This document shows, piece by piece, positions 29,208 to 30,044 of a stretch of 64,000 nt of DNA. Origin of the DNA: a virus; IMG/VR virus record IMGVR_UViG_3300027631_000002, positions 1-64,000 of that record; one strand, written 5' to 3'. Within the stretch, counting starts at the first letter, position 1. Each line of letters starts with the position of its first letter. The position numbers and the translations under genes were made by a program. The notes beneath the pieces are model-generated. The model was not told the DNA's origin. It did not search any database and saw nothing but the letters and a program-made list of their open reading frames with translations.

Positions 29208-30044
29208 TTATTTATTGAACTCGTCAAATTTTAAAAGTTTTGATTCAACAACTACTTCTTTTGCAGTGTTACCTCTTCTTTCAATTGCTTTCCATTTCTT
29301 ATCTAAGAAAGCTAACTTAGCTTTATCAATTTTACAGTTTCTATCTGAAATGTTTCCTTCGTTAAAAAGTGAAATCATTTCGTCCATACTTAATGTAGGA
29401 TGTTTTTTATCAAACAAAGGATCTGGATGTGACCAACCAAATTTGAATAACCAGTTCAGCATAGCTGCTTTACTGAAGTCTTGATAGTCTGCAGTAGTAC
29501 CGTTACCTTTTCTCTTAGATAATTTAGCATTACCTTCAAAAAGTAAACCAGCATGTGTGATAACTGGAAATGTTTTATCTCCTTCTACTTCACAAATCTT
29601 ATCCCATATTAAGTGTTGCTTTACCTCATTTGCAATGTGGTCAACACCTCTGATGATGTTAGTTACATCATAATCGTAGTCGTCTAAGATTGAACAAAAG
29701 TTGTAAGTAGGGAATCCGTTATTTCTAAGGATAACCATTGAGTACTCTCCCATATCTAATTCATAACCGTTCTCAGTTTTAGTACCGATTTTCTCAGCAA
29801 CTTCTTTGTAACGGTCTAACCTTTCAGATTGTCTGAATGTGATGTCATGATCTAATCCAAAATCTGCCATCTGCTCATAGATATAATCAATCCATTCTGG
29901 TTTATTTCTTTCTTGGTCAGTATCATCAATTCTTAAAATGAATGTACCGTTATTCGCTCTTGCTTGAAGCCAAACAAGTAATGCTGTACGTAAGGTTCCT
30001 AAATGGAAGAAGCCCGTGGGGCTCGGAGCAACACGTGTTACCAT
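29208..30044 (-). CDS. gltX: truncated glutamyl-tRNA synthetase (no anticodon-binding domains, CP domain largely deleted)
   Basis: TRVAPSPTGFFHLGT, LRIDDTD, QSERL, PTYNF..ILDD, IIRGVDH, KLSKR and FGWS...DKAKL. Only 278 aa. Confidence 0.88.
   Translation of the reverse strand: MVTRVAPSPTGFFHLGTLRTALLVWLQARANNGTFILRIDDTDQERNKPEWIDYIYEQMADFGLDHDITFRQSERLDRYKEVAEKIGTKTENGYELDMGEYSMVILRNNGFPTYNFCSILDDYDYDVTNIIRGVDHIANEVKQHLIWDKICEVEGDKTFPVITHAGLLFEGNAKLSKRKGNGTTADYQDFSKAAMLNWLFKFGWSHPDPLFDKKHPTLSMDEMISLFNEGNISDRNCKIDKAKLAFLDKKWKAIERRGNTAKEVVVESKLLKFDEFNK

Follow-up and report, generated by a model that had tools for sequence, protein, structure and literature searches.

A minimal glutamyl-tRNA synthetase paralog without CP and anticodon-binding domains in huge phages

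The window analysed here is a stretch of 64,000 nucleotides (~29% G+C) that forms the first part of a 179,626-bp IMG/VR viral contig (IMGVR_UViG_3300027631_000002; G000 below); as CheckV rates this contig ~30% complete, the full genome is probably near 600 kb. A minus-strand open reading frame (ORF) in the window, starting with ATG and encoding 278 amino acids (aa; Table 1), specifies a miniaturised paralog of glutamyl-tRNA synthetase (GluRS) from which both the acceptor-binding CP insert and the anticodon-binding half are gone, and which belongs to a large, strongly selected family found only in viral or unclassified metagenomic DNA. Our best reading, which we hold tentatively, is that this short form glutamylates the 3' end of tRNA-Glu-type RNAs in an anticodon-blind manner. 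The nearest public record is that of an uncultured phage (LR745206.1, 634,780 bp) whose ortholog is 85.7% identical to the 278-aa protein. Genomes of at least 634 kb have been assigned to the Mahaphage clade, with Bacteroidetes as predicted hosts, in a study that also describes the synthetases of huge phages in general (Al-Shayeb et al., 2020; PMC7162821).

Results

The short form is a GluRS core without the CP and anticodon-binding domains

The protein matches the Glu/Gln catalytic domain PF00749 (1.4e-45; cut-off 23.4 bits) in two stretches, residues 2-86 and 102-251, with profile positions ~88-173 skipped, and with both the HIGH and the KMSKS signature present it belongs to the class I aminoacyl-tRNA synthetases. 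The bacterial GluRS profile gltX_bact (TIGR00464) scores 204.3 bits, below its equivalog cut-off of 289.95, and aligns only over positions ~1-88 and 173-315 of 470. By alignment, residues ~90-166 of Escherichia coli GluRS, that is the ~77-residue CP/acceptor-binding insert, are reduced to ~13 residues; the zinc ligands C98, C100, C125 and H127 of the E. coli enzyme lie in the lost stretch, and the phage protein has no Cys cluster. The CP region measures 16 residues here, as against 80 in E. coli GluRS and 67-68 in the GluQRS (glutamyl-queuosine tRNA(Asp) synthetase, YadB) of E. coli and Acinetobacter. Homology ends at E. coli GluRS residue ~316, the boundary between the catalytic and the anticodon domain, and the anticodon-binding half is gone. 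An original prediction, made from the letters of the window, had proposed a GluRS-type core stripped of its anticodon-binding domains and of most of its CP domain, with HIGH (as HLGT) and KMSKS (as KLSKR) kept; the alignments agree with it on each of these points, H14-L-G-T17 and K174-L-S-K-R178 being invariant or nearly so in the family. KLSKR is the GluRS form of the latter signature, E. coli GluQRS having KLSKQ.

An AlphaFold2 model based on a 90-sequence alignment (pLDDT 93.2, pTM 0.88) provided additional support for this architecture. Strands within residues 88-106 form a short beta-meander where the CP domain would be, and after a long helix (241-263) the chain continues through a linker of low confidence (264-272) into a short terminal helix (273-277). 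When the model was searched with Foldseek, bacterial GluRS came first (E ~1e-21, TM 0.76-0.79) and GluQRS lower (1e-14, TM 0.58-0.62); VIA-align gave Z scores of 26-29 over 245-262 residues for GluRS, 21-23 for GluQRS and ~20 for GlnRS. As residues 1-263 of the model align to GluRS chains up to residue ~340-350, we conclude that the stem-contact fold is kept, as had also been predicted. Sequence comparisons showed similar trends: the best match is a bacterial GluRS (7e-43, compared to 9e-17 for YadB), and the stem-contact half matches gltX_bact positions 173-315, whereas GluQRS models, which score 81-120 bits (TIGR03838, 119.8 bits against a cut-off of 276.7), match mainly the first 90 residues (residues 2-87).

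The short form is conserved across phages and under purifying selection

In a large protein database the short form is represented by at least 120 protein clusters at 66-96% identity, all of 225-284 residues and on contigs of up to 348 kb, and IMG/VR holds 24 viral loci with the gene on contigs of up to 483 kb. A scan of 185,579 cellular species genomes for the short form returned only ordinary GluRS at 27-35% identity; one match (L186) reached 61% identity in its best segment, its overall E-value being no better than that of the other matches. Within the family and in relatives at ~40% identity, residues R4, P7, T10, G11, R38, T42, D43, R46, D122, R132, H164, S176, K177 and R178 are invariant, and the active-site set that is conserved or invariant comprises R4, P7-G11, R38, D40-D43, R46, Y114, D121-D122, R132, H136 and K174-R178, residues that we take, from published GluRS structures, to be those binding glutamate, ATP and A76. 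The core evolves with a dN/dS of 0.048-0.081 relative to three orthologs, and the gene is thus under strong purifying selection. A pseudogene or an assembly artefact is ruled out by the size of the family, the dN/dS and the confident fold. In the literature searched, which was not exhaustive, we found no description of a natural CP-less GluRS or of the architecture of this phage family.

The short form is an extra copy beside full-length synthetases

LR745206.1, a complete genome, encodes a GlnRS (661 bits, cut-off 426), a full-length GluRS (390.5 bits, cut-off 290, with the anticodon domain PF19269) and the short form, and a 483-kb genome that is 98% complete (G014) likewise encodes one full-length and one short enzyme; the short form is therefore an extra paralog. 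Three other genomes, G009 (98% complete), G011 (92%) and G005 (89%), have the short form only. A recent truncation of the phage's own GluRS is ruled out, since identity to the full-length GluRS of LR745206.1 amounts to no more than 24-35% and the short form falls in a different clade.

Origin of the short form and its relation to GluQRS

An exhaustive search for representatives yielded an architectural series: canonical enzymes with a CP domain of ~80 residues and an anticodon domain, forms with half a CP domain and a C-terminal domain, forms with half a CP domain and no C-terminal domain (~290-320 aa), and forms with neither (250-280 aa). In a FastTree phylogeny of 158 cores, the 278-aa protein lies within a 53-member short-form clade (support 96), in which the CP-less forms are nested among half-CP forms, and the half-CP member P0128 also occurs on viral contigs. 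Three nested members of the clade have long C-terminal extensions in which Pfam searches matched no anticodon domain, and because none is recognisable there, these extensions do not settle whether the clade descends from a complete GluRS. A maximum-likelihood tree (LG+C20, a quick IQ-TREE search with SH-aLRT support) recovered the phage forms without anticodon domain as a clade with 100% support on a branch of 0.74, and GluQRS as a clade with 97-100% support elsewhere among GluRS. The 278-aa protein is thus not nested within GluQRS.

These trees bear on the possibility that the short form is a GluQRS-like modifier, which would activate glutamate independently of tRNA and form the ester on a modified nucleoside or at another internal RNA position. 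The two enzymes have in common that the anticodon-binding domain is absent, tRNA-Asp genes lie near the short-form gene at two loci (L022 and L024), and AU tests kept trees in which the short-form clade and GluQRS are joined (p 0.64 with two GluQRS references, p 0.59 with six), such constrained trees exceeding those of the quick free searches by 4.5-7.1 log-likelihood units. Both clades sit on long branches, a setting prone to attraction, and long-branch attraction between them is a live alternative to common descent. Profile evidence favours a GluRS-like nature of the short forms: six further clade members score 212-259 bits with gltX_bact and 111-168 bits with GluQRS models, the latter matching mostly within the first 90 residues, so that all seven members tested, the query (204 bits) included, lie on the GluRS side. 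Structural similarity (Z 28 to GluRS, 21-23 to GluQRS), the KLSKR signature in place of KLSKQ, the absence of the zinc-bearing CP domain of GluQRS and the separation of the two well-supported clades also speak against a GluQRS-like activity. No TGT gene was found in five genomes carrying the short form, although queuosine (Q)-containing host tRNA could still be a target. Weighing both sides, we regard such a modifier as quite unlikely. The phylogenetic comparison with GluRS and GluQRS that the original prediction had called for thus gives a split answer, in that the protein is not nested within GluQRS and similarity is higher to GluRS (204 versus 120 bits for the query), but a sister placement survives the AU test.

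Proposed function

As the active site is intact and invariant, the short form most likely retains ATP and glutamate binding and the formation of glutamyl-AMP. The glutamate would then most likely be moved to the 3' end of RNAs whose acceptor and D-arm body are of the tRNA-Glu type. Since neither the stem-contact fold nor the 3'-end-binding motif DTD..R has been lost, the protein could plausibly still dock on the inner corner of the tRNA L, and the anticodon would not be read since the domain that binds it is gone. Loss of the CP domain opens the acceptor side of the active site and would relax what enters; substrates that are poor for full-length GluRS could be charged, for example phage tRNA-Glu or tRNA-Gln with incomplete modification, tRNAs that had their anticodon cleaved and were then repaired, or anticodon-less tRNA-Glu mimics. 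Huge Bacteroidota-type phages would keep such a paralog beside the normal Glu and Gln charging enzymes, be these their own or the host's.

We judge 3'-end glutamylation to be the likeliest activity because the active site, the 3'-end motif and the stem-contact fold are conserved, because a C-truncated GluRS is still specific for tRNA-Glu according to the title of Dubois et al. (2009; cited in PMC3927822), and because tRNA is reportedly aminoacylated by class I enzymes that were engineered down to a core without CP1 or an anticodon domain (PMC10450160, PMC9026127). The genomic context, which is centred on tRNA, also counts for it: tRNA arrays adjoin the short-form gene at L018, L022 and L024, ARAGORN finds adjacent tRNA-Glu(UUC) and tRNA-Gln(UUG) genes among ~8 tRNAs in G009, and an RNA ligase and a polynucleotide kinase-phosphatase (Pnkp) are encoded downstream of the gene in its closest relatives.

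Several observations weigh against 3'-end charging, which for this reason we put forward with reserve: (i) canonical GluRS holds the acceptor arm with its CP domain, and a CP-less enzyme may charge the acceptor end very poorly, or need a partner to charge it at all; (ii) candidates for such a partner are wanting, as no stand-alone anticodon domain (PF19269) was found in G000, G009, G005 or G011, no protein neighbour of the short-form gene is conserved across the loci compared, and a phosphatase fused to a tRNA_bind domain (PF01588), encoded elsewhere in the window, is absent from G009, G014, G005 and G011 and confined to this contig; (iii) the short-form clade may be sister to GluQRS, which modifies the anticodon and not the 3' end; (iv) the only tRNA gene of G005 is one for tRNA-Arg, so any RNA substrate there must come from the host. 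An anticodon domain supplied in trans is unsupported, given the lack of a stand-alone PF19269 and the confinement of the tRNA_bind fusion.

Loss of both tRNA-gripping domains of GluRS, coexistence with complete GluRS and GlnRS and the lack of an obligate RNA partner would also suit an enzyme that makes Glu-AMP and uses a protein, a modified DNA base or a small molecule as the acceptor of the glutamate; among synthetase paralogs, MshC-type ligases and PoxA use amino acids on non-tRNA acceptors. A review describes synthetase-like paralogs that work outside translation (PMC9437257), a precedent for this view. We nevertheless consider a non-RNA acceptor rather improbable: the stem-contact fold and the DTD..R motif, which contact tRNA in GluRS, are strongly conserved, no conserved neighbour suggests a pathway, and the surroundings of the gene are dominated by tRNA genes and tRNA enzymes.

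tRNA-Glu mimics and the short form are not obligately paired

The original prediction had counted five RNAs on a Glu scaffold in the window and named the short form as the natural enzyme to charge them. Five tRNA-Glu-like RNAs are indeed present at ~21450-22593 on the minus strand, 7 kb from the short-form gene, with a common acceptor stem, D-stem and T-arm, a hairpin inserted in each D-loop and differing anticodon regions. Their array adjoins a tRNA-Met and a GOLLD RNA (322 bits, 20403-20809, minus strand). According to PMC12286853, the GOLLD linker can harbour phage tRNAs, speculated there to be contents of the cage. In G014 (L049 580-1480), Glu-body mimics with a UUUUCG loop stand on either side of a GOLLD-like RNA.

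We surveyed enzyme and mimics in both directions, using a covariance model built from the five mimics together with a pattern scan. At L003, L004, L014 and L015 the enzyme gene has mimics no more than 10 kb away, and mimics also occur in G001, G014 and LR745206.1; the last two hold full-length GluRS, short form and mimics, which would leave the short form free for a non-canonical substrate, and an enzyme without an anticodon reader would fit RNAs without anticodons. However, the covariance model found no match in G009 (98% complete) and G005 (89%), both of which have the short form; having been built from one genome, it also missed the G009 tRNA-Glu that ARAGORN found, and may therefore miss diverged mimics. 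Conversely, the short form occurs in only 4 of the 37 viral contigs with a mimic signature. Of the genomes with verified mimics, G034 (91%) and G018 (100%) encode a full-length synthetase of the PF00749 family and no short one, and G041 (95%) and G016 (84%) lack any GluRS-type gene. An obligate pairing of enzyme and mimics is thus unsupported in either direction. Distribution does not bear out the short form as the natural enzyme for the mimics; a synthetase dedicated to these RNAs, which have no usable anticodon, and glutamylating them specifically, is one option among several and in our estimate an unlikely one.

A 62-nt tRNA-like RNA with acceptor stem, D-arm and T-arm and without an anticodon arm was observed at L048 1223-1284 on the minus strand (G009:222135-222196), where it adjoins tRNA-Gln and tRNA-Glu in the 464-kb genome of phage G009.

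A C-terminal tag-like peptide and a gene-start box

The 278-aa protein ends in ...VESKLLKFDEFNK. On the contig, 37 of 193 ORFs (~19%) begin with a tag of the form MK-x-LK-x-[FY]-[DE]-x-F, compared to 3% of internal windows, and the enrichment is replicated in G002 (28/169 versus 2.9%), a contig that has the same tail type and so serves as a replicate for the tag analysis only. When a 9-residue weight matrix was derived from 29 N-terminal tags of the contig, the peptide KLLKFDEFN, which fills all but the last of the final ten residues of the short form, scored 15.1 bits and ranked first among 48,523 non-N-terminal windows (the leave-one-out median of real tags being 14.0), in line with the earlier remark that the tail resembles the N-terminal motif. 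Its position is C-terminal, without the arrangement of an N-terminal tag followed by a prohead-protease site. At L003, L004 and L005 the tail is kept in spite of near-saturated synonymous sites. The orthologs of G009, L016/L024, L019 and L022 lack it, even though N-tagged proteins occur in G009 and L016; because of these tailless orthologs, we regard the tag as a lineage-specific addition and not as part of the core function.

The box that had been noted upstream of the gene, TAATATATA, is enriched in the window (16 copies versus 5.6 expected, 0/100 shuffles as high). Across the contig there are 60 copies in 180 kb, of which 47 lie 4-30 nt 5' of an ORF start on the same strand, the distance being preferentially 4-6 nt or 17-30 nt. 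The box stands before tagged genes more often than before untagged ones (odds ratio 3.2, p 0.004). These patterns identify TAATATATA as a putative gene-start signal. Copies in the window include those at 11914, 22880, 30066, 30181, 33435, 36808, 45777, 45818, 57296 and 58809.

As the short form has both the peptide and the upstream box, it is probably co-regulated and co-localised with the tagged protein set: one sub-lineage, including this phage, would have gained at the C-terminus an address-like peptide found at the N-terminus of ~19% of the phage's proteins. By analogy, targeting to the capsid through the tail peptide is one idea. At its furthest, it leads to an urzyme-like synthetase that is addressed by its peptide together with the tagged proteins, possibly to the capsid for delivery with the DNA, and there or early in infection glutamylates the mimics encoded beside the GOLLD nanocage RNA, an aminoacylation outside the genetic code; we think this scenario very unlikely. 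Alternatively, the short form may have a decoy or regulatory role without catalysis, titrating a host factor directed against GluRS or tRNA-Glu (for instance a HipA-type kinase) or sequestering tRNA. Invariance of the substrate-binding and catalytic residues across the 66-96% identity family and the 40% relatives, with a dN/dS near 0.05, is what one expects of an enzyme and is not needed for a decoy. Although HipA inhibits translation through phosphorylation of GluRS (PMC10627512), the KLSKR loop is kept, and the tag-like peptide is common to a protein set that may be delivered with the virion, we find a decoy the least probable of the possibilities considered here.

Further observations on the tag concern other proteins. 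IITDFDTF is a variant of the tail on other contigs. N-tagged or tag-bearing sites in the window include 30208, 44375-45772, 45831, 55738-57291 and 57360-58787. C-terminal tag-like peptides occur in three other proteins, encoded at contig positions 75312-76163 (IVKTFENFI, 12.0 bits), 163764-164960 (9.5 bits) and 30208-32268 (YLKPLNEFF, 9.0 bits), the last being a ClpB-like ATPase that is also tagged at its N-terminus. Strong internal matches were seen in the products of 48313-49281 (residue 126, HIKKFNDYI, 14.0 bits) and 51731-52168 (residue 124, NIKKYNDYL, 10.7 bits), and such matches may point to internal starts, gene fusions or boundaries between domains.

Genomic neighbourhood

The features of the short-form gene are collected in Table 1. 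The hairpin after its stop codon folds at -14.1 kcal/mol (z -3.86, 0/200 shuffles as good) and separates the gene from the RNA ligase; with this terminator-like element behind it and the TAATATATA box before its start, the gene looks like a transcription unit of its own. Downstream, the closest relatives encode an RNA ligase (PF09414), a 69-aa ORF and a Pnkp. In the window this tRNA-repair-type pair occupies 27260-29131 on the minus strand (RNA ligase, PF09414, 1e-27; Pnkp with kinase and HAD_PNKP domains, 9e-43) with the conserved 69-aa ORF in between, and an HNH/NUMOD4 homing endonuclease lies beyond it. A defining operon with RNA ligase and Pnkp was rejected, as the order holds only at L003 and L004 and partly at L005, is lost elsewhere, and a terminator stands between the genes.

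Table 1. Coordinates of the short-form gene and its associated features in the window.
Feature	Coordinates	Strand	Basis
Minimal GluRS paralog gene (Rossmann catalytic core, stem-contact fold and tail)	29208..30044	-	ORF, PF00749, profile, AlphaFold2, structure match, dN/dS
HIGH signature HLGT, residues 14-17	29994..30005	-	Sequence; H14 nearly invariant, G16 invariant in family
Short beta-meander linker at the CP position, residues ~87-102	29739..29786	-	Alignment; strands 88-90, 93-97 and 102-106 at pLDDT >90
KMSKS signature KLSKR, residues 174-178	29511..29525	-	Sequence; K174, S176, K177, R178 invariant
C-terminal tag-like peptide KLLKFDEFN, residues 269-277	29214..29240	-	Weight-matrix score; linker residues 264-272 low confidence
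TAATATATA putative gene-start box, 21 nt 5' of ATG	30066..30074	-	Motif enrichment
Intrinsic-terminator-like hairpin and T-run, directly after stop codon	29180..29204	-	Terminator scan, folding

Homing endonuclease genes recur near the short-form gene. A GIY-YIG-like ORF (~365 aa) lies directly upstream of it at L005 (8789-9886), L015 (1-641, cut by the contig end), L016 (288-1376) and L024 (3713-4801), four loci that are otherwise differently arranged, which suggests homing-endonuclease traffic around the gene.

Two further genes of the window touch on tRNA metabolism. A second miniaturised synthetase is encoded at 8307-8981 on the minus strand, namely a 224-aa HisRS cut down to the catalytic core of class II (two stretches match hisS, 2.2e-49, below the cut-off), which ends just past a motif-3-like GIGFALGIDR and has no tag-like tail. 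The phosphatase fusion mentioned above is a 277-aa protein (50550-51383, minus strand) in which a HAD-type phosphatase (DIDGVLN) is joined to a C-terminal Trbp111/EMAP-type tRNA-binding domain (PF01588, 63 bits), and may be a tRNA-directed phosphatase.

Discussion

In the prevailing view, class I synthetases cannot hold the acceptor arm without a CP insert, and GluRS also needs its anticodon domain to pick the right tRNA. Against this background, a large natural family of cores that lack both and are under strong selection, with half-CP intermediates that document a stepwise loss, is of interest, all the more as at least some phages keep the short form beside complete GluRS and GlnRS. If active, the short form would be a natural test of how little protein suffices for specific aminoacylation and a candidate anticodon-blind charging enzyme with possible use in genetic-code engineering. 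It adds to a picture of the largest phages running a parallel, stripped-down tRNA machinery, the same window encoding the 224-residue HisRS core, the tRNA mimics and the tRNA-repair pair. The C-terminal tag shows in addition that the address-like peptide of this phage can move from one protein end to the other. In light of a natural class II GlyRS mini-enzyme, we note that such natural minimal forms are valued by the field (PMC11602164).

Among known systems, bacterial GluRS (GltX; TIGR00464; PDB 7k86, 1j09, 8i9i) has the same Rossmann core, HIGH and KLSKR signatures, glutamate, ATP and A76 motifs and stem-contact fold, whereas the phage form is without the ~77-residue CP insert with its zinc site and the ~155-residue anticodon-binding half, scores 204 bits against a 290-bit cut-off and coexists with a true GluRS in related complete genomes. 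GluQRS (TIGR03838; PDB 1nzj, 4a91) likewise is a GluRS-type core of similar length without an anticodon domain, but it keeps a full CP domain and KLSKQ, and the phage protein resembles it less than it resembles GluRS (120 versus 204 bits; Z 21-23 versus 28). The C-truncated forms of E. coli GluRS that have been engineered (Dubois et al., 2009; Dasgupta et al., 2009; both cited in PMC3927822) have the same end point, at residue ~316. Those engineered forms keep the CP domain, whereas the phage form is CP-less, natural, old and under purifying selection. The class I urzymes of the Carter laboratory (TrpRS and LeuRS cores; PMC10450160, PMC9026127) lack the same CP1 and anticodon-binding modules. 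Urzymes are designed and have ~130 residues, whereas the phage protein is natural, has 278 residues with complete Rossmann and stem-contact folds, and belongs to a large selected family. The capsid targeting sequence of phage T4 is N-terminal, on internal proteins and on Alt, and is followed by a cleavage motif. It resembles the tag of the present phage in being a short peptide with an aromatic-x-acidic-aromatic core on many unrelated proteins of a large phage; on the short form, however, the peptide, recognised here from its sequence, is C-terminal, has no cleavage motif after it and is missing from some orthologs.

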